From: a virus
Virus record (IMG/VR): IMGVR_UViG_3300034101_001153
Location: 1 to 64,000 of that record
Direction: 5' to 3' (one strand)
Length of the DNA stretch: 64,000 nucleotides
Of this stretch, positions 1 through 40,086 are shown piece by piece. Numbering within the stretch: position 1 is the stretch's first letter; every line of letters begins with the position of its first letter. Under the pieces are notes generated by a model. The model had not been told where the DNA came from and ran no database searches. It saw nothing but the letters and a program-made list of their open reading frames with translations. The position numbers were made by a program, and so were the translations under genes.

Positions 1-2
1 CT

Positions 3-203
3 TGGTCTGGCGATCTTGGCTGGGGTGTTACTGTGAACTACCTTGCAGACAACGAGCATAAGGTTCCTGTGTATGACTTTGCACTCCGCGAGGTAACTCT
101 CTATGACTATGATTGGAAGTCGGGAGTGCTGACTGATATGATTGTCACGTTCTCGCTGAACGAGTTCATCCGTAAGTACGCTAAGACCTTGGTGGAGGTG
201 TGA
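3..203 (+). CDS. hypothetical protein, 5'-truncated by window edge
   Basis: Open frame WSGDLGWGVTVNYLAD...KTLVEV* whose TGA overlaps the GTG of the next gene (GTGA). Confidence 0.7.
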   Translation, partial: WSGDLGWGVTVNYLADNEHKVPVYDFALREVTLYDYDWKSGVLTDMIVTFSLNEFIRKYAKTLVEV

Positions 204-649
204 CAATGATTGACCCTAGCATGACTGACATTCATCCTTACCCGCCAACTATGCAGGAGTTGGAGCAGAGGGTGGGTCAATCGTATACAGAGATTAAACG
301 TCTGACTTCAGAGTTGGAGACTATCACTACCGACCGTGATTTCTGGCAGGCCAAGGCTCATGAGCGGCAGTTGATGATTGACAACCTTGAGGAATACGTC
401 AAGGATCAGTATGACTACATTGATGAGAATATCTCTCAGAGTCTTGTCGATATCTTTGGTTTCAATATCACCAAGGACTACGATGTGACAATTACCGTAA
501 CGTTCTCTGGTGTTGTTACTGCACCGCTTAATTTCGATATGGATGATCTTGAGAACCATCTGAATGCCAGCCTTGACGCATCCTACTACGGAGATGTAGA
601 GGCAGACTTCTCAGAGGATCGCATGGAGATTGACTGGTCTGAGAGTTAG
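200..649 (+). CDS. hypothetical early protein (coiled-coil N-terminus, acidic C-terminus)
   Basis: 149-aa ORF with GGAGG upstream, coupled to the previous gene. Confidence 0.75.
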   Translation: MTMIDPSMTDIHPYPPTMQELEQRVGQSYTEIKRLTSELETITTDRDFWQAKAHERQLMIDNLEEYVKDQYDYIDENISQSLVDIFGFNITKDYDVTITVTFSGVVTAPLNFDMDDLENHLNASLDASYYGDVEADFSEDRMEIDWSES

Positions 650-656
650 TAAGGCC

Positions 657-729
657 GCTCCCATCGTCTAGAGGCCAAGGACGCCGCCCTTTCAAGGCGG
701 TAGCACGGGTTCGAATCCCGTTGGGAGTA
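657..729 (+). tRNA. tRNA-Glu(TTC)
   Basis: Acceptor GCTCCCA/TGGGAGT, anticodon arm CCGCC-CT TTC AA-GGCGG, T-loop GGTTCGAATCC; CCA not encoded. Confidence 0.95.
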
Positions 730-731
730 CT

Positions 732-781
732 GGGAGGGATGACTGAGACTGGACTCCAGTTGTCCCTCTCTTTATTTATTT
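732..781 (+). terminator. intrinsic terminator
   Basis: GGGAGGGATGACTG...CAGTTGTCCCTCTC stem followed by TTTATTTATTT. Confidence 0.7.
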
Positions 782-788
782 AGACACG

Positions 789-817
789 CCCGGCCCGCAA
801 GACTTAGTTTTGTCAAG
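789..817 (-). repeat. motif A copy 1: CTTGACA-N13-CGGGCCGGG
   Basis: Same spacing as the copies at 2130-2158 and 5640-5668. Confidence 0.8.
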
Positions 818-820
818 TGT

Positions 821-850
821 TTACGACGATCATTTTAAAATCACGGAAAT
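821..850 (+). repeat. motif B copy: TTACGA-N13-ATCACGGAAAT
   Basis: Recurs at 2185, 2195, 5697, 5762, 6009 and 6127. Confidence 0.8.
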
Positions 851-889
851 GTTTATCGAAAATTGATATAAATAATCTGCTAGATATTC

Positions 890-918
890 TTGAGACTGTC
901 AGACCTAGGGTGTATAGT
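890..918 (+). promoter_or_regulatory. sigma-A-type early promoter
   Basis: TTGAGA-N17-TATAGT; spacer TGTCAGACC resembles TGTCATACC in the promoter at 2228-2256. Confidence 0.65.
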
Positions 919-952
919 TCTTCTATAAGTTCAATCAACTAAGGAGAATCAC

Positions 953-1948
953 ATGGCACACGCAGTAGAGGTTGGCGCAAACGGCGAGCAGGCTTTCGCT
1001 TCCTTCCGCGAACCAGCATGGCACGGTCTTGGCACCGTATTCTTTGAGGAGAAGTCCACCCAGGAGATGCTGGATGCGGCTTACCTGTCCAACTGGAACG
1101 TTCGCCTGGAGGCCGTTCCTTACCCTTCCACCTACAATGTCATCACACCTTCCTACATGGTCCTTCGTGACAATCCCTTCGACCAGGGTACTGATGTTCT
1201 CGCCACCGTTGGTGAGCGTTACCACGTTCTTCAGAACGAGGATCTTTTCGACTTTGGCGATGCGCTGCTTGACGGTGGTCGCTGGGAGACTGCTGGCTCT
1301 ATTCGTCAGGGTCGCGTTGTGTTCGGTTCGCTTGCGCTTGAGCGTGAGACTGTCCTTGATCCCAACGGCGTTTCGGATGTTGTGAAGTCTTACCTTCTCG
1401 TCCACACCTCGCATGACGGTTCTACCGCTGTGCAGGCTTCCATCACTCCCGTCCGCGTTGTGTGCCAGAACACTCTGAACATGGCTCTTCAGGGTGTGAA
1501 GCAGTCCTTCAAGATTCGTCACACGCAGACTGTGGGCGGTAAAGTTCTGGCTGCACGCGAGGCTCTTGCTCTCGCAAACACCTACCTGGACGAGTTCGAC
1601 AAGGAGGCTCAGGCTCTCATCACCAAGGAGATCACCAAGGCTAAGTTCGATGCCATTCTTGAGGCTGTCTACCCGCGTCCCGACAAGGATGCCAAGGGTG
1701 CCGTCAAGAAGTGGGAGACTAAGGTCGATCTGCTGGAGGAGATTTACTCTTCCGATACCACCAACATGATCGCAGGCACCGCGTGGGGTGCGTTCAATGC
1801 TCTCACGGAGCGTCTGGACTGGTTCCGCAAGGGTCGCGGCGAGCGTGGTGCTGAGAATGTTGCAGCAGCCGCTAGTGGTTTCGATCCTGTCACCAATGCG
1901 GAGAAGGGTCGTATCCTGAGGGCGGTCAAGGAGATCGCTTTCGCGTAA
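953..1948 (+). CDS. DUF932 / LGT_TIGR03299 family phage protein
   Basis: REPAWHGLG, ETAGSIRQGRVVF, SHDGS, TPVRVVCQNTL, TAWGAFNALTE motifs; AAGGAG RBS. Confidence 0.9.
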   Translation: MAHAVEVGANGEQAFASFREPAWHGLGTVFFEEKSTQEMLDAAYLSNWNVRLEAVPYPSTYNVITPSYMVLRDNPFDQGTDVLATVGERYHVLQNEDLFDFGDALLDGGRWETAGSIRQGRVVFGSLALERETVLDPNGVSDVVKSYLLVHTSHDGSTAVQASITPVRVVCQNTLNMALQGVKQSFKIRHTQTVGGKVLAAREALALANTYLDEFDKEAQALITKEITKAKFDAILEAVYPRPDKDAKGAVKKWETKVDLLEEIYSSDTTNMIAGTAWGAFNALTERLDWFRKGRGERGAENVAAAASGFDPVTNAEKGRILRAVKEIAFA

Positions 1949-1952
1949 TCAA

Positions 1953-1980
1953 ACATCCTGGGTATGATGTAAAACTGCCT
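1953..1980 (+). ncRNA. compact H-type pseudoknot candidate
   Basis: ACATC(1953-57)/GATGT(1966-70) and GGGTA(1960-64)/TGCCT(1976-80). Confidence 0.45.
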
Positions 1981-1984
1981 GCAC

Positions 1985-2052
1985 GCCACCCGCGCTGGGC
2001 GCAGACGAGATTCCAACCCTTGTCGTGCAGAGTTCGATTCTTTGGGGTGGTG
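1985..2052 (+). tRNA. atypical tRNA-Trp(CCA)-like gene with minimal D-arm
   Basis: Acceptor GCCACCC/GGGTGGT + G73, D-arm GCGC-TGG-GCGC, extended anticodon stem around TT CCA AC, T-arm CAGAG-TTCGATT-CTTTG. Confidence 0.65.
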
Positions 2053-2056
2053 CTTG

Positions 2057-2129
2057 GCACTTGTAGAGTAGCGGTTATCTCGCCACCCTGTCACGGTGGA
2101 GATCGTGGGTTCGAATCCCATCAGGTGCG
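2057..2129 (+). tRNA. tRNA-Asp(GTC)
   Basis: Acceptor GCACTTG/CAGGTGC, anticodon arm CCACC-CT GTC AC-GGTGG, GGTTCGAATCC. Confidence 0.95.
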
Positions 2130-2158
2130 CTTGACAAATCCAATAAAATCGGGCCGGG
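2130..2158 (+). repeat. motif A copy 2: CTTGACA-N13-CGGGCCGGG
   Basis: Exact 13-nt spacer, as in the other two copies. Confidence 0.8.
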
Positions 2159-2184
2159 CCGCAATTATTTATTCTATTACTCAT

Positions 2185-2224
2185 TTACGATGCATTACGA
2201 CGATTCACTGAAATTCACTGAAAT
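2185..2224 (+). repeat. two interleaved motif B copies offset by 10 bp
   Basis: TTACGA(2185)-N13-TTCACTGAAAT and TTACGA(2195)-N13-TTCACTGAAAT. Confidence 0.8.
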
Positions 2225-2227
2225 TCC

Positions 2228-2256
2228 TTGTCATTGTCATACCCCTATGGTAGCGT
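2228..2256 (+). promoter_or_regulatory. sigma-A-type early promoter
   Basis: TTGTCA-N17-TAGCGT with extended TG, upstream of the small-ORF operon. Confidence 0.55.
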
Positions 2257-2279
2257 AGTAATACACAGAGAGGATGGAT

Positions 2280-2453
2280 ATGCCATATACACAGACTATT
2301 ATTCTACATATTACGCTTCCTGACGACCAGCCGAATCCTAAGTCGTGGGAGTGGGATGCTGAGTTGGACTTGCATCTTGTAGATGCCATTAGTGATAATG
2401 AGTTTGTCCTAGAGGATTGGCTTCTTGTCGATCAGAATGAGAGTGATGAATGA
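2280..2453 (+). CDS. small acidic hypothetical protein (57 aa, not in ORF track)
   Basis: MPYTQTIILHITLPDDQPNPKSWEWD...NESDE*; GAGG RBS; stop overlaps the next start. Confidence 0.7.
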   Translation: MPYTQTIILHITLPDDQPNPKSWEWDAELDLHLVDAISDNEFVLEDWLLVDQNESDE

Positions 2454-2623
2454 TGGACCCTAATATTGTTCTCAACCGCCTCCGCGATATCTTGACCCAA
2501 TGGGAGGAGTGGGGTACGCTAGAGGTAGATGCAGAATCTGCTATGTATGAGATTGTTGATCTCTTTCATGACCTTGACGACTGGCTATCTCAGGGTGGCT
2601 TCCGACCCAACGATTGGAGTTAG
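2453..2623 (+). CDS. small actinophage-type hypothetical protein (56 aa)
   Basis: MDPNIVL...DLDDWLSQGGFRPNDWS*; the MDPN...LD.WLS.GGF.P..W pattern is familiar from actinophage early proteins. Confidence 0.75.
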   Translation: MDPNIVLNRLRDILTQWEEWGTLEVDAESAMYEIVDLFHDLDDWLSQGGFRPNDWS

Positions 2624-2625
2624 TA

Positions 2626-2853
2626 ATGGCAACCATCACATTCTCAGTAGAACTTATCTACGAGGGAACTGGTCACTTTATGGATTTTGAGTATGACTAT
2701 GAGACTTGGGATGATATGACCCAAGAGGAGTTGGAAGCATTGGCTGACGATCTTGCTACTGGTCGTGATCCTGAGTTGTATAACGAGATCATGAATAACA
2801 TTTCTATTGTCCCCCGCCTTATTAGCATTGAGGATACTGATGAATCTGAGTAA
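2626..2853 (+). CDS. very acidic hypothetical protein
   Basis: ATG at 2626 after GGAG; about 21 D/E against 2 R and no K in 75 aa. Confidence 0.75.
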   Translation: MATITFSVELIYEGTGHFMDFEYDYETWDDMTQEELEALADDLATGRDPELYNEIMNNISIVPRLISIEDTDESE

Positions 2854-3142
2854 TGCTGAGCCTGGATGCTACATTGACGGCTCCCACCGCTCCAACTTTG
2901 ATTTCATGTGCATGGTCATCGAAATGGCAGAGTCATATGGGTTTGAGATGGACTTTGATCAGTTTGTCAGGGATGTGGAGGGTATTCGTAATGATTTCTT
3001 CACAGATGATGATATCTATGACATTATGGATTCTATTGACTGGACCTATGATGATGCGCTAGACTATCTCAATACCAATACCCGCGACGGGTTTTACTGG
3101 GAAGTTATAGATCAGAGTCTATATCTTGTGGAGGAAGAGTGA
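2840..3142 (+). CDS. acidic hypothetical protein
   Basis: MNLSNAEPGCYIDGSH...; GAGGA RBS before ATG 2840. Confidence 0.75.
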   Translation: MNLSNAEPGCYIDGSHRSNFDFMCMVIEMAESYGFEMDFDQFVRDVEGIRNDFFTDDDIYDIMDSIDWTYDDALDYLNTNTRDGFYWEVIDQSLYLVEEE

Positions 3143-3285
3143 AGCACACATTCATTGTCACAGTAGAATGCGAGAAATATACTGATTCGCATATTGTAAT
3201 GGCGAACCGTTTGGACTATGATGAGGACTACGGTTTCCCATATACCGTCGAATGGCGAGACACGCCCCTTAGGTTGGAGGACTAA
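3139..3285 (+). CDS. small hypothetical protein (48 aa)
   Basis: GTG start with GGAGG; MKHTFIVTVEC...DYDEDYGFPYTVEW; coupled at both ends. Confidence 0.7.
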   Translation: MKHTFIVTVECEKYTDSHIVMANRLDYDEDYGFPYTVEWRDTPLRLED

Positions 3286-3536
3286 TGCAGTTTCACTATG
3301 TTGTATTCTATGACACAGATACTCAGAAGTGGGGGGTAGAGTTTGATACCGCCGCCTACTTTGCAGATGGTAATATCTATGATGATGATTCTGCTACGCA
3401 GACTGGCTATGGCTGGTTTGCTGCTGGTGATGATACGCCTTTGGAGGCGGCACTTGATGAGTCTCTAGTTAGACTTCTTGGATACATTGTAGATACTTGG
3501 CCTGCTCCTGGGGAGGTGCAAGGTGCCAATGCCTGA
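3285..3536 (+). CDS. acidic hypothetical protein
   Basis: ORF track; TAATG coupling, GGAGG RBS. Confidence 0.75.
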   Translation: MQFHYVVFYDTDTQKWGVEFDTAAYFADGNIYDDDSATQTGYGWFAAGDDTPLEAALDESLVRLLGYIVDTWPAPGEVQGANA

Positions 3537-3720
3537 GCGTATCAACGCTATCAAGACTGTTACTTATGATGTTCCCGCCATTGTTGAGAGCCTAGAGCAG
3601 ATGGGCATGGAGGATATTGACTTTGACGTTGTGATGGAGTATATTCAGGAGTGGGTCTTTGAGGACTTTGGCGGGGACTCTGGAATTATCTTTCAGGATG
3701 AGAATGGGGAGGAACTATAA
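3523..3720 (+). CDS. acidic hypothetical protein
   Basis: ORF track; ends QDENGEEL. Confidence 0.75.
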   Translation: MPMPERINAIKTVTYDVPAIVESLEQMGMEDIDFDVVMEYIQEWVFEDFGGDSGIIFQDENGEEL

Positions 3721-3899
3721 TGCCTAAGTATAGAATTAGTTTTACTACTGAGGATTTGTGGAGGCTGGACGTAGAGGCTAATACCATTGACGAGGCTATG
3801 GAAAACTTCTATAATGGTGACTACACGCACGATATGGCGGTACTTACTGAGGGTGGCTATCTTCAGGAGTCCGTTAGTATCGAACCTATGGAGGGCTAA
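3720..3899 (+). CDS. hypothetical protein, paralogue of 4038-4217
   Basis: MPKYRISFTTEDLW...EGGYLQESVSIEPMEG*. Confidence 0.8.
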   Translation: MPKYRISFTTEDLWRLDVEANTIDEAMENFYNGDYTHDMAVLTEGGYLQESVSIEPMEG

Positions 3900-4045
3900 T
3901 GAAGTACGCAGTAGCATTTGGTAATGCTTTCGATGGTCATAATTTTTATGGCCCGTTCGATTCTAGTGATGAAGCCATTGACTATGGATCTAATCGTGAA
4001 GACGGCGACTGGTTTGTTATTCCATTGGAGGTTCCTCATGCCTAA
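3899..4045 (+). CDS. small hypothetical protein (48 aa)
   Basis: MKYAVAFGNAFDGHNFYGPFDSSDEAIDY...; TAATG coupling. Confidence 0.7.
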   Translation: MKYAVAFGNAFDGHNFYGPFDSSDEAIDYGSNREDGDWFVIPLEVPHA

Positions 4046-4217
4046 GTATAGAATTAGTTATCAGACCGAGGACTGGTGGGACTTGTTCGTAGAGGCATAC
4101 TCTATGGATGAGGTCCTTACCAAGTTTCACAATGGGGAATATGACCACAACAGGGCCACTCTAATAGAGGGCGGCTATCTGCAAGGTTCCGTTAGTGTCG
4201 ATCCTGTGGAGGACTAA
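4038..4217 (+). CDS. hypothetical protein, paralogue of 3720-3899
   Basis: MPKYRISYQTEDWW...EGGYLQGSVSVDPVED*; GGAGG RBS; real start is 4038, not 3918. Confidence 0.8.
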   Translation: MPKYRISYQTEDWWDLFVEAYSMDEVLTKFHNGEYDHNRATLIEGGYLQGSVSVDPVED

Positions 4218-4570
4218 TGACTAGCATCACCATGCACCTTACTGCTAACTTCTACCCGCCGATCCCTGCTGACATTCAGATGCGCGTGCAGGAGATTTTC
4301 GATGAGTTGGAGCGTGACTCAGGCCCATATATCATAGGCTTTGCAGACGTTCCAGAGAATTGGGACTACATGTATGATGATGAGTCTGTATTTGATCGAA
4401 CATATGAGTTGCCCAATGGTGCGGTGGTGACAGGTCGCTCTCTGTGTGATGATCTGCGTCTTTGGGATGCGCTATTCTGGGACTGCTCAGAGCCAGATGA
4501 GTTGTGGGCAGACTACGAGCGGGAGCAGAAAGAATATGCAGGCCAACTATCATTCTGGACGGCGGAGTAA
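4217..4570 (+). CDS. hypothetical protein
   Basis: ORF track; HLTANFYPPIP; coupled. Confidence 0.75.
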   Translation: MTSITMHLTANFYPPIPADIQMRVQEIFDELERDSGPYIIGFADVPENWDYMYDDESVFDRTYELPNGAVVTGRSLCDDLRLWDALFWDCSEPDELWADYEREQKEYAGQLSFWTAE

Positions 4571-4668
4571 TGGACAACTGTGATCGTTGCTATTCCTATG
4601 AGGAAGATGATATCCTTGCCATGAACAAAGGTATCTGCGAGTCGTGTAGAGTGGAGGAGATTGTCTAA
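4570..4668 (+). CDS. tiny CxxC..CxxC protein (32 aa)
   Basis: MDNCDRC...GICESCRVEEIV*; TAATG coupling at both ends. Confidence 0.6.
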   Translation: MDNCDRCYSYEEDDILAMNKGICESCRVEEIV

Positions 4669-4889
4669 TGTCTAATACAATCCATTTCTATGAGATTGAC
4701 GGTGGCCCATCAGGTATCTGGTGGGAGGGTAGGGTAGATGATGATGGTCCCTACATTGGTATGTTCGATAATCAGGTGGACCTAATGCGTATTGCTAGTA
4801 TTCTCAGTCTTGCTAATCATCCTATCCGCTTTCACACACAGGCTGAGTATGAGTTGGATTCTATGCTAGAGGAGATTCTAGGAGGATGA
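4668..4889 (+). CDS. hypothetical protein
   Basis: ORF track; GGAGGAG RBS. Confidence 0.7.
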   Translation: MSNTIHFYEIDGGPSGIWWEGRVDDDGPYIGMFDNQVDLMRIASILSLANHPIRFHTQAEYELDSMLEEILGG

Positions 4890-5050
4890 TAGGTAGATCA
4901 TATAGTATCGGAAGGCGTGTAGAACGTCATACTGGTGGCGGTGGTCGTATGAAACCAACCAACTTCTCTGAAACAGTATTTGGTATCTTTATGCTACTTG
5001 CTATCCTATTTATTCTTGGTTCATGCATTGCTCCGTTTGTAGGTGATTAG
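4886..5050 (+). CDS. small membrane protein (54 aa)
   Basis: MIGRSYSIGRR...FGIFMLLAILFILGSCIAPFVGD*; AGGAGG RBS. Confidence 0.65.
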   Translation: MIGRSYSIGRRVERHTGGGGRMKPTNFSETVFGIFMLLAILFILGSCIAPFVGD

Positions 5051-5398
5051 ATGAATAAAAGAGATTATCTTAGAAGTCTTGGTTTTGAGGTCGGTGAGCG
5101 AGGCAGGCTATCTGCTGAGATGCTAGAGGCTCTTAAAGACTTTTATGAAGATGCTACACAAAATAATAAACCACAGAGGAAGATTCTTCCTGCATCTGTC
5201 AAGATGCGAGATGATAGAACCTACATGGTGGAGTTGCAAGATGGTGGCAGAGTAGAAATGGGATTCTGTTCATCTTGTAAAGAATCTATGCTCTACTGTC
5301 ATTGCGACGGTGGCCCAAAACCACCCTCGTACCTTGACTCTCCCATAATAAACTGGTATCCTGTAACTTCCCATAAGGAGGAACATGCTAGAGGATAA
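5051..5398 (+). CDS. Lsr2-like DNA-binding domain protein with C-terminal Cys cluster
   Basis: RDYLRSLGFEVGERGRLSAEMLEA resembles the Lsr2 AT-hook-like RGR domain; CSSC...CHC. Confidence 0.7.
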   Translation: MNKRDYLRSLGFEVGERGRLSAEMLEALKDFYEDATQNNKPQRKILPASVKMRDDRTYMVELQDGGRVEMGFCSSCKESMLYCHCDGGPKPPSYLDSPIINWYPVTSHKEEHARG

Positions 5399-5603
5399 GA
5401 TAGCACGCAAAATGGCAGACATGTTCTCAGATAGTAGAATCAACGTCTACGTCTTAGCGGCTATGACACGTAGGTATCTATCTCCACATATGAATAGAGT
5501 TCTACAAGAATGGTGGGACTTGCATACAGCAGATGCCAGCACGTATGTCGATAGTGGACAGAGGCAACTGTTTGATGTTGGAGCGTATGACGTTCATCCA
5601 TAG
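5385..5603 (+). CDS. hypothetical protein
   Basis: ORF track; AAGGAGG RBS. Confidence 0.7.
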   Translation: MLEDKIARKMADMFSDSRINVYVLAAMTRRYLSPHMNRVLQEWWDLHTADASTYVDSGQRQLFDVGAYDVHP

Positions 5604-5607
5604 TTGA

Positions 5608-5635
5608 TGTGGGGGCGGTGAAAATCGCCCCCACA
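5608..5635. terminator. GC-rich hairpin ending the early operon
   Basis: TGTGGGGGCGGT-GAAA-ATCGCCCCCACA. Confidence 0.7.
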
Positions 5636-5639
5636 AATA

Positions 5640-5668
5640 CTTGACATGGGCACGTTTGGCGTGCCGGG
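5640..5668 (+). repeat. motif A copy 3: CTTGACA-N13-CGTGCCGGG
   Basis: Exact 13-nt spacer, one substitution. Confidence 0.75.
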
Positions 5669-6268
5669 TTTTCCACAAGTTATCCACAGGTGGGTATTAA
5701 GAACCAAATAAAAAATCTCACTGAAATTCCGGGACAACTTAAAAATATAATTTAATAGACATTACGAACGTGTGAAAAAAATCACTGGAAAAGAAAGGCT
5801 TCAAGGAAATGATTGAGTTCCTCTTAGTGTTTATAGGTATAGCGCTATTGTTGTCAATGATGCAACCACCACCGCCCCGCAAATAGCGGCGGCGGTAGGG
5901 AAAACTCCTATCAATATATCCCCCTATAATATATATACAAATATCCCTAGATTGTCAGAACTTTTCTGACTTTTTCCGGGATATTTTGTTATTTTTCTAG
6001 AAAAAACATTACGAACCCAACAAAAAAAATCACTGAAATTTGGGGGGAATTTCCCTATGTGTGGATATCCTGTGGATATCTCTGGCATATGTTATAAAAA
6101 TGTTATAGAAAATACTTGAAAAAGTATTACGAAGGGGTGTGATATATCACTCCATATCTCAATATAATAACATTTTAATCTCAATATGTATCTATATTTA
6201 TAGACATATGTGTCTATTGACTCATATTGTGGACAACCTGTGGATAACTTTGATACCCTTGTGGATAA
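5669..6268. promoter_or_regulatory. cluster of seven DnaA-box-like 9-mers interleaved with motif B copies
   Basis: TTTTCCACA 5669, TTATCCACA 5680 (+); TGTGGATAT 6060 and 6071, TGTGGACAA 6228, TGTGGATAA 6239 and 6260 (-); motif B at 5697, 5762, 6009, 6127. Confidence 0.8.
5809..5886 (+). CDS. possible 25-aa membrane peptide
   Basis: AAGGA then MIEFLLVFIGIALLLSMMQPPPPRK*. Confidence 0.35.
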   Translation: MIEFLLVFIGIALLLSMMQPPPPRK

Positions 6269-6535
6269 CCTGTCATCCTATTACGTGCAAATGATAGTGT
6301 TCATTGTGTGATCTTTAAGACTACTCTGTGTCAGAGAAATACTCTTCATACTCACACACCATACACTTTCTTCCTATCTCTTCTATTATTCCTTTATAGA
6401 GTATTTCTTCTATAGGGAGAAGGATATGTTCTCCTGTACCACCGCCCGAACAGGGACTGTCGCTTATCATAAATCCTCCTAGGTAAATAGAAACGGCTGC
6501 CGTAGCAGCCGCTCTATATGGTAAAAATTTGTTGC

Positions 6536-6820
6536 TTATCGCTTGGGGAAAAATACTCCAGCCCATACTGCTTTCTTTACTTCTGGATTCTTCCATTCTT
6601 CTGGGATCATGCTCTCAGCGTTTAATGCTCTTGCTCTACGCATAATGTGTTCTTTAACGTCCTGTCTAGCACCACCGCGCCCCCATGATCTAATGGCATT
6701 CATTAAGTCTTCTCTGTTTGCAATTGGATAAGATCCATCTGGCATAGCAGTTCCAGAAGAAGCCATTCTTCTACGTTGCTCTTGGGAAAACTCTCTCTTC
6801 ATCATATCCATTATGTACAC
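6536..6820 (-). CDS. small protein resembling phage head-associated accessory domains (DUF6582-like)
   Basis: AMPDGSYPIANREDLMNAIRSWGRG...KEHIMRRARAL...IPEEW; GAGGAG RBS. Confidence 0.6.
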   Translation of the reverse strand: MYIMDMMKREFSQEQRRRMASSGTAMPDGSYPIANREDLMNAIRSWGRGGARQDVKEHIMRRARALNAESMIPEEWKNPEVKKAVWAGVFFPKR

Positions 6821-6866
6821 CTCCTCATACGTTTAATTCGTATACTTTCTAATAATTATTATACTC

Positions 6867-7055
6867 TTAAACGCCCCTGCGATACTTCCTACGAATCTGA
6901 GGCTTGACTCCAGCCTTAACGCATTGTTGGTAGGCTACTCCGTACTTCTTTTCATTGCTCTCTCCAGCCTTGCCACCGACCGCCTTACGAACTTCACCAA
7001 TGGTTCTGTTTAATTCGCGGATTAGGGCTTCAGCCTCTTCATTGGGTACTGACAT
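6867..7055 (-). CDS. hypothetical protein
   Basis: ORF track; AAGGAAGG RBS. Confidence 0.7.
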   Translation of the reverse strand: MSVPNEEAEALIRELNRTIGEVRKAVGGKAGESNEKKYGVAYQQCVKAGVKPQIRRKYRRGV

Positions 7056-7215
7056 TATTCAAACCTTCCTTCATCGATATATTTCTTATGCTTTTCTTTA
7101 CATGGTTCGCACCATTGCTTTGGTAGGTACTTCCTTTTTGATACTGACCATTTAATTAAACAATCATACTCACTATGCTTTTTTGCTACGCATGTACTCT
7201 TTGCCATAATAAATC

Positions 7216-8253
7216 TCAATTTCTTTTAGAATGTGGTTTGTTCTCAGCAAGTGCGCTATGAGATATTGTAATATACTGTGCCTCTTTATACAAGGAATAA
7301 AGGTTATCAACACCTGAGTAGGATAGACCGCTTCCAATGCCGCCAGCCCATTGTTTGAGTACGGAGGACACTGGTCCATTGTATGGGACCATAGTACTCA
7401 CACCTTCAATAACGGATACTGAGCCTCTACCCTCTTTCTGAGCGGCTTCTGAGGCCATACCACGGAGTTTTTTAAATCTCTCCCCATCGATATTAATAAT
7501 AGATCCTGGCGTTTCTTCTGTGCCAGCCAATGCAGATCCAAGCATGACTACATCTGCTCCTGCGGCAAAAGCCTTTACAGCATCACCAGAAGTTTTAATT
7601 CCACCATCAGCAATAATGGATGGACCGTATCCTCTTTCCACTCTTTCACGAATATCCATAATCGATGCAAGAGTGGGCATACCATGACCACTAACAAGTC
7701 TGGTAGTGCAAAGACCGCCACCACCAATACCAACACGAACAGAGTCTACGCCAGCATCTGCAAGCGACATGTATCCATGATATGTAGATATGTTTCCAGC
7801 CATGATATGAACATCTGGGAAGTGATCCTTTAGTTGCCTGACTGCGTTAATCGCATACTGACCGTGACCATTTGCAGTATCCACTAGGAGTATCCGAACG
7901 CCAGCATCAACTAGTTTCTGAGCATGATCCATAAAACCATTATTAGATGCAATAGCAACGCCAAAAACAATATTGTTTTCTACAAGAGTTTTTGCTTGCC
8001 AAAGTTGCTTATCATATGACATATACCTATGAAGAATTCCTAGGCCACCAGCAGCAGCCATAGACATACACATATCTCTTCCACAGATAGTATCCATGGG
8101 AGCAGCAATAATAGGAAGTGACAGTGGAATTAATACAGAGTCACAGCCGATGGTAGCGGACATATCTACCGCGCTTCTTGACATGATATCTGAGTCTTGT
8201 GGAACCAATAATATATCATCGAAACACAAGATGTTTCTTTTATACTCTTTCAA
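7216..8253 (-). CDS. IMP dehydrogenase / GMP reductase family protein (no CBS domains)
   Basis: FDDILLVP, AAPMDT, VDTANGH, GIGGGGLCTTR catalytic Cys loop, IIADGGI, RGMAS, EGV. Confidence 0.9.
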   Translation of the reverse strand: MKEYKRNILCFDDILLVPQDSDIMSRSAVDMSATIGCDSVLIPLSLPIIAAPMDTICGRDMCMSMAAAGGLGILHRYMSYDKQLWQAKTLVENNIVFGVAIASNNGFMDHAQKLVDAGVRILLVDTANGHGQYAINAVRQLKDHFPDVHIMAGNISTYHGYMSLADAGVDSVRVGIGGGGLCTTRLVSGHGMPTLASIMDIRERVERGYGPSIIADGGIKTSGDAVKAFAAGADVVMLGSALAGTEETPGSIINIDGERFKKLRGMASEAAQKEGRGSVSVIEGVSTMVPYNGPVSSVLKQWAGGIGSGLSYSGVDNLYSLYKEAQYITISHSALAENKPHSKRN

Positions 8254-39590: not shown

Positions 39591-39925
39591 GTCTCCTTTA
39601 TTGCAATACTCAATAGTACCAGATAGCCCATAAGATCGTCAAGATCATTTTCTTTAAAAGTATCGTCACCGTTACTAAATCTAGATAATTTATCGTCAAT
39701 TCGTACCTTGAGTTGCTCAGTGGTGTCTGAGTGAGAAAAAATTCTCACTGGGTTCAACGCTGAGTTTCCATATGATCTATTCTTATCAATTAAAAGGTCT
39801 GAAATTCTATTGCATTCTGACTGAATGGCTGCCTCAACTTTGTTTCTTGGAATAGTGCCAAGGCTTGACCTAACATTATCCATAATTTCTTTGGTATACA
39901 TTGACTGTACATCTTTTTCAATCAC
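39581..39925 (-). CDS. nucleotide-modification-associated domain 1 (DUF1599-like) protein
   Basis: KNRSYGNS, RIDDKLSR, DLMGYLVL. Confidence 0.75.
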   Translation of the reverse strand: MIEKDVQSMYTKEIMDNVRSSLGTIPRNKVEAAIQSECNRISDLLIDKNRSYGNSALNPVRIFSHSDTTEQLKVRIDDKLSRFSNGDDTFKENDLDDLMGYLVLLSIAIKETWK

Positions 39926-40086
39926 TTAGACCAACTCCTTTGATTTCTAATAAGTCCATATTGTACTAAATATCTATAAATAGTTTGATGGCTGGTGTTA
40001 CATTCTTTTGCAATATCCTGTATTGTTTTTTTATCAACTACATAGCGCTTGGTTAGCCAAGATTTACTTTGATATAGTTTAGCCAT
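39922..40086 (-). CDS. small HTH protein (54 aa)
   Basis: KLYQSKSWL..RY..DKKTIQDIAKEC..SHQTIYRYL. Confidence 0.7.
   Translation of the reverse strand: MAKLYQSKSWLTKRYVVDKKTIQDIAKECNTSHQTIYRYLVQYGLIRNQRSWSK

Follow-up and report, generated by a model that had tools for sequence, protein, structure and literature searches.

Two short DNA motifs form one module at the starts of early transcription units in an uncultured lake phage

The subject of this study is a pair of short bipartite motifs, A and B, that recur between the early genes of a phage known from IMG/VR virus record IMGVR_UViG_3300034101_001153, a contig of 96,176 bp with 38.9% GC. The window, i.e., the whole stretch analyzed, is its first 64,000 nucleotides (64 kb). 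The contig ends overlap by 69 bp, so the assembly is circular, window position 1 is arbitrary, and the plus-strand arm that carries the motifs runs on across the contig ends. Minus-strand genes occupy 6.3-90.0 kb. The arm begins at 90.1 kb, passes the contig ends, and has its last genes stop at 5.6 kb; it encodes ThyX, an HNH endonuclease, WhiB, DUF7178, DUF932, an Lsr2-like protein, ∼30 tiny unassigned open reading frames (ORFs), and tRNAs (ARAGORN). We ran Pfam and PHROGs on 32 ORFs of the arm and 10 selected proteins, and only ThyX, HNH, WhiB, the Lsr2-like protein, DUF932, and DUF7178 were recognized. DNA of the phage is present in many lake-water metagenomes, and the region matched none of 50,697 phage records at near-identity. 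In a distant-mode search, the sole cultured relatives at the DNA level were the Streptomyces cluster BE phages (Stanwilliamsviridae), through the DUF932 gene only.

We found that A and B are the halves of one ∼95-bp module placed at the starts of early transcription units. In each cassette, the end of the prior unit (a terminator hairpin, a tRNA, or an ORF end) is followed by A, then after ∼26 bp by B (box 1, TTACGA; box 2, TCACnGAAAT), and then by a promoter. The genome holds seven such cassettes (c1 to c7). The features in window coordinates are the following.

657-730, plus strand: tRNA-Glu (ARAGORN).
∼732-781, plus strand: long hairpin and T-run, read from the sequence, closing the upstream unit directly ahead of cassette c4.
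789-817, minus strand: A in its right-arm form, core CCCGGCCCG, N13, TGTCAAG; core and arm are kept in the orthologous regions of five relatives, and the spacer is variable.
821-850, plus strand: B, TTACGA-N13-A-tract-TCACGGAAAT; its boxes are conserved islands in the orthologue alignment.
890-918, plus strand: predicted early promoter of DUF932 (promoter scan), TTGAGA, spacer box TGTCAGACC, TATAGT; ∼90 nucleotides (nt) of promoter and leader are near-identical in relatives.
2057-2130, plus strand: tRNA-Asp (ARAGORN), closing the upstream unit and sharing its final base with the start of the next A.
2130-2158, plus strand: A in its left-arm form, CTTGACA-N13-CGGGCCGGG(CCG), with no fold by itself.
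2185-2224, plus strand: doubled B, two TTACGA and two TCACTGAAAT boxes, with a 10-bp period throughout.
2228-2256, plus strand: predicted early promoter, TTGTCA, degenerate box TGTCATACCC, TGgTAGCGT.
5611-5633, plus strand: GC hairpin closing the last plus-strand gene (GGGGGCG...CGCCCCC), read from the sequence.
5640-5668, plus strand: A in its left-arm form; N13 and core also make a GGCACG/CGTGCC hairpin followed by TTTT (-14.3 kcal/mol, z -1.6).
5669-5688, plus strand: two DnaA-box-like 9-mers, TTTTCCACA and TTATCCACA, between A and the first terminal B, an order also found in relatives L065, L070, and L092.
5697-5727, plus strand: B variant, TTAAGA-N14-CTCACTGAAAT, with TATAAT 18 nt beyond.
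5762-5791, plus strand: B whose spacer completes a CRP-like palindrome, TGTGA-N6-TCACT, 16 nt ahead of a small hydrophobic ORF.
6009-6039, plus strand: B in the noncoding terminal region, with no promoter-like -10 downstream.
6060-6079, minus strand: two DnaA-box-like 9-mers (TGTGGATAT twice), read from the sequence.
6127-6156, plus strand: degenerate B, TTACGA-N14-TCACTCCATA.
6228-6268, minus strand: three DnaA boxes (TGTGGACAA, and TGTGGATAA twice) at the arm end, beside the 3' ends of the minus-strand genes, read from the sequence.

The positions given in a first-pass annotation of this DNA were confirmed. Exact A (CTTGACA-N13-CGKGCCGGG) occurs at 817-789 (minus strand), 2130-2158 (plus), and 5640-5668 (plus) and nowhere else in the 96,176-bp genome; exact B lies at 821, 2185, 2195, and 6009, with variants at 5697, 5762, and 6127. 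The 10-bp interleaving described at 2185/2195 is real but is better read as a TTACGA pair and then a TCACTGAAAT pair, the members of each being offset by 10 bp. With relaxed patterns (A, TTGACA-N12/13-YGKGCCGGG; B, TTA[CA]G[AG]-N13-15-[TCA]CAC-N-[GA][GA]AA[AT]), we detected six copies of A, at 789 (minus), 2131 (plus), 5641 (plus), 92,817 (minus), 94,050 (minus), and 95,069 (minus), and ten copies of B, on the plus strand without exception, between 92,849 and 6,039 across the contig ends. Simulation yielded no copy of A in 60 genomes and 400 arms, versus six real copies, and 0.23 copies of B per genome, versus ten. A chance origin of A and B is excluded. The hexamer GCCGGG occurs six times genome-wide, each time within an A element. 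Three additional cassettes containing A and B lie upstream of window position 1 (92,795-92,960; 94,027-94,149; 95,031-95,209). With them, the A/B domain spans ∼9.7 kb, starting at 92.8 kb, passing the contig ends, and stopping at 6.3 kb. The first-pass annotation noticed no motif in the minus-strand part of the window, and the whole minus-strand block proved to lack them: neither A nor B is found between 6.4 and 92.7 kb. Its claim that they mark every intergenic gap holds inside the window but not for the whole arm, since at 90.1-92.7 kb and 95.4-95.8 kb intergenic promoters stand without A or B.

Most matches to the two patterns in IMG/VR were single and due to chance; in addition, ∼30 loci belonged to a family of contigs from lake phages (35-110 kb), in which several copies accompany the TGTCAGAC promoter and DnaA boxes. 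In 72 of 114 non-identical cassettes, 13-15 nt separate TTACGA from box 2. At clade 1 loci, TTGACA stood exactly 15-16 nt upstream in 36 of 59 GCCGGG sites and never at another distance within 45 nt. Five whole contigs from relatives (84-108 kb) carried A and B only within stretches of 3-11 kb, with 0 matches to reversed controls. The spacing conservation and confinement that had been anticipated for relatives were thus borne out. The core of A varies by clade (GGCC(C/G)GGCC-type here; GGGGCGACCCC or its complement; GCCCGGGC with a hairpin), and the arms and N13 are constant. For 58 of 85 B sites, box 1 is preceded by an A core centered 18-32 bp away, whether the right arm is present or absent; with this fixed A-to-B distance, A and B make up a single module and are not the two separate motif systems first described. 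The footprint upstream of DUF932 in six genomes shows the same discontinuous conservation, with the core, TGTCAAG, TTTACGA, and TCAC.G.AA conserved and the intervening spacers not.

Next to this footprint, the ∼90 nt of promoter and 5' leader of DUF932 (860-953) are near-identical in six phages (this one with L070, L092, L097, L113, and L122), and the flanks diverge, which suggests that the leader is constrained. In a search with WhiB, the best match was L144 (JBIKTI010000524.1), a 7-kb contig whose WhiB is 75% identical to that of the phage. It is filed in a metagenome-assembled genome of Phycisphaerales from a lake time series, a filing that is uninformative on the host, and is most likely a misbinned fragment of a related phage.

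We considered whether the cassettes, which flank units of small genes in a variable region, are portable linkers akin to promoter-early stem-loop (PeSL) cassettes, with repeats serving the recombination of small early genes and boxes that are ordinary promoter parts. Contigs from other lake samples do join across several gene-sized segments of the arm, and the arms of A occur left only, right only, or both, as if joined at the core. However, the boxes alone are conserved and not the whole cassette, whereas recent mobility would keep the spacers, and the observed joints lie inside coding stretches, not at A. We regard this explanation as very improbable. The joints themselves were seen in contigs from four lake runs, which show strain variants and gene-sized joints in the arm at window positions 3500-5400; one links 3871 to 4214, and another, in which 18 letters take the place of the segment, links 4192 to 5052. 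They indicate that small early genes are gained and lost among co-occurring strains.

A proved to be one half of a 49-bp dyad, TTGACA-N13-[11-bp GC-rich quasi-palindromic core]-N13-TGTCAA. Both arms are present in the copies at 92,795 and 94,027, only the left arm at 2130 and 5640, and only the right arm at 789 and 95,069. The centers of arm and core are ∼21.5 bp apart, which places both arms and the core on one face of the helix. As a sigma-A promoter, A has a perfect TTGACA (-35) in all six copies but no TAnnnT (-10) 16-19 nt downstream, where each copy has the GC core (CCGGGC and similar); a promoter scan called no promoter at the A elements. The genome has only 11 CCGG sites, versus ∼72 expected, and 6 of these 11 are A cores. 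The core is thus actively kept despite the genome-wide purge. Among the five CCGG sites outside A cores, two belong to copies of TTCCGGGA in the noncoding end region (5727-5734 and 5974-5981), the first immediately 3' of box 2 of the B at 5697; these copies may be degenerate A cores. AGCT is absent from the 96-kb genome (0 sites versus ∼260 expected), and GTAC is low in the early arm (9 versus 24). The scarcity of AGCT, CCGG, and GTAC looks like restriction-site avoidance.

The two forms of A differ in their capacity to fold. The two-armed copies of this genome form hairpins of -25.7 and -24.2 kcal/mol (z -5.7 and -3.9), and five more in relatives fold with z of -2.5 to -5.6; overall, these folds range from -21 to -30 kcal/mol, with weakly T-rich tails. 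In this genome, the two-armed copies lie at ORF ends with no other terminator preceding them. Of the one-armed copies, the one at 5640 folds weakly (z -1.6), and those at 789, 2130, and 95,069 show no fold. One-armed copies retain the arm, the spacing, and the core, are preceded by a separate terminator or tRNA, and have an N13 that diverges between orthologues. A could be read at the RNA level alone, as a terminator, an RNase III-type processing site, or a 3'-stabilizing hairpin, with one-armed copies as functionless, decaying remnants. Good folds were obtained for each of the seven two-armed copies, a promoter/terminator scan flagged the c2 core as terminator-like, and several one-armed cores pair with the adjacent spacer, often with GAAA or TTCG loops. 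Yet in one-armed copies, which cannot make the long stem, the spacing of TTGACA to the core is strictly N12/13 (36/59, with no other distance seen), and the spacers differ from one orthologue to the next. In addition, a separate terminator or a tRNA precedes most A copies, and the core-to-B distance is fixed. An RNA-only role is, in our view, quite unlikely. In our reading, A is a boundary element that would be read at the DNA level, probably by a symmetric protein, and its full form may act as an RNA hairpin too. Of the initial view of A as a protein site and not a promoter, the second part stands; the first is qualified by the palindrome, whose full form is a hairpin, so that A may act at the RNA level as well.

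B is directional, with the family consensus tTTACGA-N9-AAAA-n-TCACnGAAAT. A second TTA(C/A)GA and a second box 2 may be added with a 10- to 12-bp period, and these optional doubled boxes account for the "interleaved" pair at 2185/2195. The A-tract just 5' of TCAC is conserved, and in this genome and its relatives, B is always co-directional with the genes.

We examined several known identities for B and rejected them. B is not a sigma-A promoter, as no register of TCACnGAAAT gives both A(-11) and T(-7), so neither motif is an ordinary promoter, as the first-pass annotation had proposed. Nor is B the -35 of its own promoter: a suitable -10 is present at 2 of 11 copies (821 and 5697) and is not conserved in orthologues. 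A canonical CRP/GlxR site (TGTGA-N6-TCACA) is likewise rejected. The right half, TCAC(T/G/A), is nearly invariant in 77 B sites, but the left half is exact in four, and 58 match at two or fewer of the five positions. As a host regulon motif, B gave 4 matches versus 3 for the control in 401 Actinomycetota genomes, among which the true host may be unsampled.

The promoters downstream of B share a layout in which TGTCAGACCC spans -28 to -19 and is followed, after three bases, by an extended -10, TGnTAnnnT; a TTGAnn -35 is present or not. TGTCAG-N10-TAnnnT occurs at 11 sites, on the plus strand only, from 91.5 kb to 2.3 kb across the contig ends. In six copies, an ATG follows six bases after the -10, a gap that implies leaderless mRNA. 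The motif of host PafBC promoters is tGTCgg(N10)tA(N3)T, with the box at -23 to -28, and the paper that reports it describes no upstream elements at these promoters (PMC8635444). Compared with that description, the predicted promoters downstream of B agree in motif and position and match a host PafBC-type layout.

The distance from B to these promoters is not uniform but stepped. From the end of box 2 to the -10 hexamer, it clusters at 16, 26-29, 38-41, and 50-52 nt, with a best-fit period of 11.5 bp (Rayleigh R, 0.66); from box 2 to the spacer box, it is 0, 10-13, 22-24, or 32-35 nt. At distance 0, box 2 spans -38 to -29, which puts CTGAAA at the place of the -35 and the A-tract at the place of the proximal UP element. 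Phased spacing upstream of a promoter holds for 7 of the 11 B copies of this genome and for the majority in relatives. Helical phasing, first noted within the doubled B, is upheld as a phasing of B to the downstream -10, but the proposal that B is an alternative to promoters is not supported, as B is tied to them. Phasing of this kind would be the signature of an element that must face polymerase.

A different account of the same geometry is that B is an unusual promoter in its own right, with TTACGA as -35, a 17±1-nt spacer, and CnGAAA(T) as -10, used by host polymerase redirected by a phage or host factor. The 13-15 nt to TCAC amount to 16-18 nt to CTGAAA, a promoter-like geometry; the strict co-direction with genes fits, and B-like sites in BE phages show the same 16-17 nt. 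However, box 2 is without the A(-11) and T(-7) typical of a sigma-A -10, a domain search found no Sigma70_r2 domain encoded in the phage, B would overlap the PafBC-type promoter by ∼30 nt where it abuts it, and an A-tract within a promoter spacer is atypical. We strongly doubt this account.

The cultured BE phages offered a comparison for the whole arm. In Samisti12, the direct terminal repeat (DTR) is 10,666 bp long (sites 191 and 644 recur at 123,235 and 123,688). Its genes run toward the physical left end, with ThyX and HNH just outside the repeat and the Lsr2-like protein and DUF932 inside. Six early-gene gaps of Samisti12 (L153, record 1-8171) hold a palindrome (e.g., TGTCGGGCCCGGACA; GTCGGGCCCGGAC, variant GTCCGGGGCGGAC), in four of six copies directly after a terminator hairpin and ahead of a promoter with a ATCGAAAGGGAG leader. 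This palindrome is the putative BE-phage counterpart of the A core. The final ∼700 bp of Samisti12 are noncoding and contain four B-like sites, TTACGA-N15/16-C(A/C/G)GG(G/A)(A/T)T, all aimed at the end. Jay2Jay has six B-like sites and Bmoc four, and the BE arrays lie 200-730 bp from the physical ends. The word GGACAT, common to relatives and Samisti12, was not enriched in the arm of this genome.

The genome studied here has the same layout, ThyX-HNH, small genes, DUF932, small genes, Lsr2-like protein, and a noncoding region at 5.6-6.3 kb with four B copies and seven DnaA-like boxes. From this synteny, we predict that the A/B domain (92.8 kb to 6.3 kb) is a terminal repeat and that the physical end lies just past 6.3 kb. 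The original suggestion of a terminal-repeat and early-region association is supported by the same synteny, and the position of the B array would predict physical genome ends in metagenomic relatives. A 25-codon hydrophobic ORF (MIEFLLVFIG start; 5808-5885, plus strand) sits in this region, just 3' of the B at 5762; a small ORF of similar kind (MELLLCIIIG or MEILLCIIIG start) occupies the equivalent place in L065 and L070, behind a leaderless PafBC-type promoter.

The end region has features of an iteron array: at 5.7-6.3 kb, GC content is 33-34%, and four B copies fall in 460 bp among seven DnaA-box-like 9-mers and AT-rich tracts at the arm end. In an alternative account, B would chiefly be an array of iteron type that serves the origin or an end of the genome, whether in starting replication, in terminase recognition, in protecting the end, or in the entry of DNA, and its copies at promoters would be secondary, e.g., for autoregulation or titration. 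The pairing of B with DnaA boxes recurs in other clades (L009, L021, L024, L065, L070, and L092), the four to six B-like sites of Samisti12, Jay2Jay, and Bmoc point to a mapped end, and no B-like site occurs in the six palindrome-bearing gaps of Samisti12. In contrast, 7 of the 11 B copies here and most in relatives are directly upstream of promoters and phased, no initiator gene was recognized in the arm with Pfam or PHROGs, no initiator or small-terminase gene is linked to B, and the likeness to BE phages depends on short motifs. We judge such a primary role unlikely. A further reading, which we also hold to be improbable, is that A and B are sites of terminal-repeat architecture. An injected, host, or early protein would organize the first-entering DNA. 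Recognition of the ends, duplication of the repeat, or staged entry would be under the control of the B arrays and DnaA boxes at the physical ends, and the protein, bound also at unit starts, would couple this to early transcription. Such a system, conserved but undescribed, would be common to lake actinophages and Streptomyces BE phages.

The reading that we tentatively favor, at a little short of an even chance, is that of a two-part protein-docking module, in which A would be a unit boundary and B a phased upstream site. B would dock a sequence-specific factor or parts of RNA polymerase and would activate the promoter from upstream, acting from one helix face; in cassettes where the two abut, box 2 would take the place of the -35 region. 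A would mark the unit boundary, its two-armed hairpin ending or processing the upstream transcript, and its core and arms, two helical turns apart, would bind a symmetric protein that cooperates with B. As the phage was found to lack a sigma factor, a CRP-type protein, and a WYL-domain protein, the reader is expected to be a host factor or a small early phage protein.

Several observations weigh against the docking module. No candidate reader protein was found in the phage by Pfam and PHROGs or by searches for sigma factors, CRP-type helix-turn-helix (HTH) proteins, and WYL-domain proteins. The phasing counts are not independent, as orthologous cassettes are included and some steps are extra box-2-like repeats, which makes their p-value a nominal one. 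Four B copies (5697-6156) and the end arrays of BE phages have no clear downstream gene or promoter and would better fit a function in replication, packaging, or genome ends. A few relatives hold box 2 within a TTGACA-N17-TAGGTT spacer, where a bound protein should repress, not activate. Finally, one-armed A cannot make the hairpin, which sets the RNA reading of A against the DNA reading.

The sole HTH-like match in the phage was a 54-amino-acid (aa) protein encoded at 39,922-40,086 (minus strand), with a weak likeness to sigma region 4 (E, 0.003). It is a possible DNA-binding candidate and adjoins a 190-aa ORF that is RuvC-like on sequence reading alone.

Nearly all genes in the early (host-takeover) regions of large actinophages are of unassigned function, and the control of these regions is obscure. 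Our analysis adds a conserved cis-map, composed of a boundary palindrome, a phased upstream site, and a predicted PafBC-type leaderless promoter, that is common to abundant uncultured lake phages. The B-like arrays and the post-terminator GC palindrome of cultured Streptomyces BE phages make the question testable at the bench. If the promoters do use the host DNA-damage activator with B as a second input, this would show a phage wiring its first genes into host signaling.

Several known systems resemble parts of this arrangement. The PeSL cassettes of T4-type phages are repeated units of hairpin and promoter that divide small early genes, and SPO1 carries its host-takeover module in a long terminal redundancy. 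Here, too, repeated hairpin-plus-promoter units split a block of small early genes. Unlike in those phages, the hosts and sequences are others, two extra upstream elements of fixed geometry are present, and the promoter is not a plain housekeeping-sigma promoter. The stoperators of cluster A mycobacteriophages (bound by L5 gp71) and the conserved inverted repeats (CIRs) of phiC31 are repressor operators of temperate phages and are distributed genome-wide. They share with A and B the many copies of a candidate protein site in short intergenic gaps of an actinophage, and the L5 stoperator ends in TGTCAAG, as the A arm does. A and B differ in being confined to one 10-kb arm, upstream of promoters, in a lytic-type layout with no known repressor. 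T5 has a long terminal repeat with pre-early genes, and repeats and DnaA boxes near its boundary (the injection-stop region). Repeats and DnaA boxes also lie near the predicted terminal-repeat boundary here; the motif sequences are unrelated, most copies are at promoters, and neither this likeness nor our other data bear on two-step DNA transfer or on the staged DNA entry first suggested.

For B, the closest parallels are CRP class I and class II sites and the sites of phi29 p4, each a directional or dyad site upstream of a core promoter at distances that change by whole helical turns. Where B abuts the promoter, its position is equivalent to that of a class II CRP site, and a few B hold the full TGTGA-N6-TCAC palindrome. 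Unlike CRP sites, B has the left half in 4 of 77 cases, an extra TTACGA two turns upstream, and a GAAAT tail, and no CRP-type gene was found in the phage. The PafBC "sigma adaptation" promoters (PMC8635444) resemble what lies downstream of B, tGTCag-N10-TAnnnT with the box at -28 to -19 and the -35 often missing; this likeness, a motif match by sequence alone, concerns the promoter and not A or B, and no WYL-domain gene was found in the phage. The intergenic repeats of halovirus HF2 are another repeated early-region cassette (PMC8707807). In line with the idea of an undescribed cis-system, we found no paper that holds the motif sequences in a relevant context. Repeated regulatory cassettes in phage early regions are thus already known, and what appears to be undescribed is the A and B pair of fixed geometry upstream of PafBC-type promoters, along with the B-like arrays that echo it at the physical genome ends in cultured BE phages.

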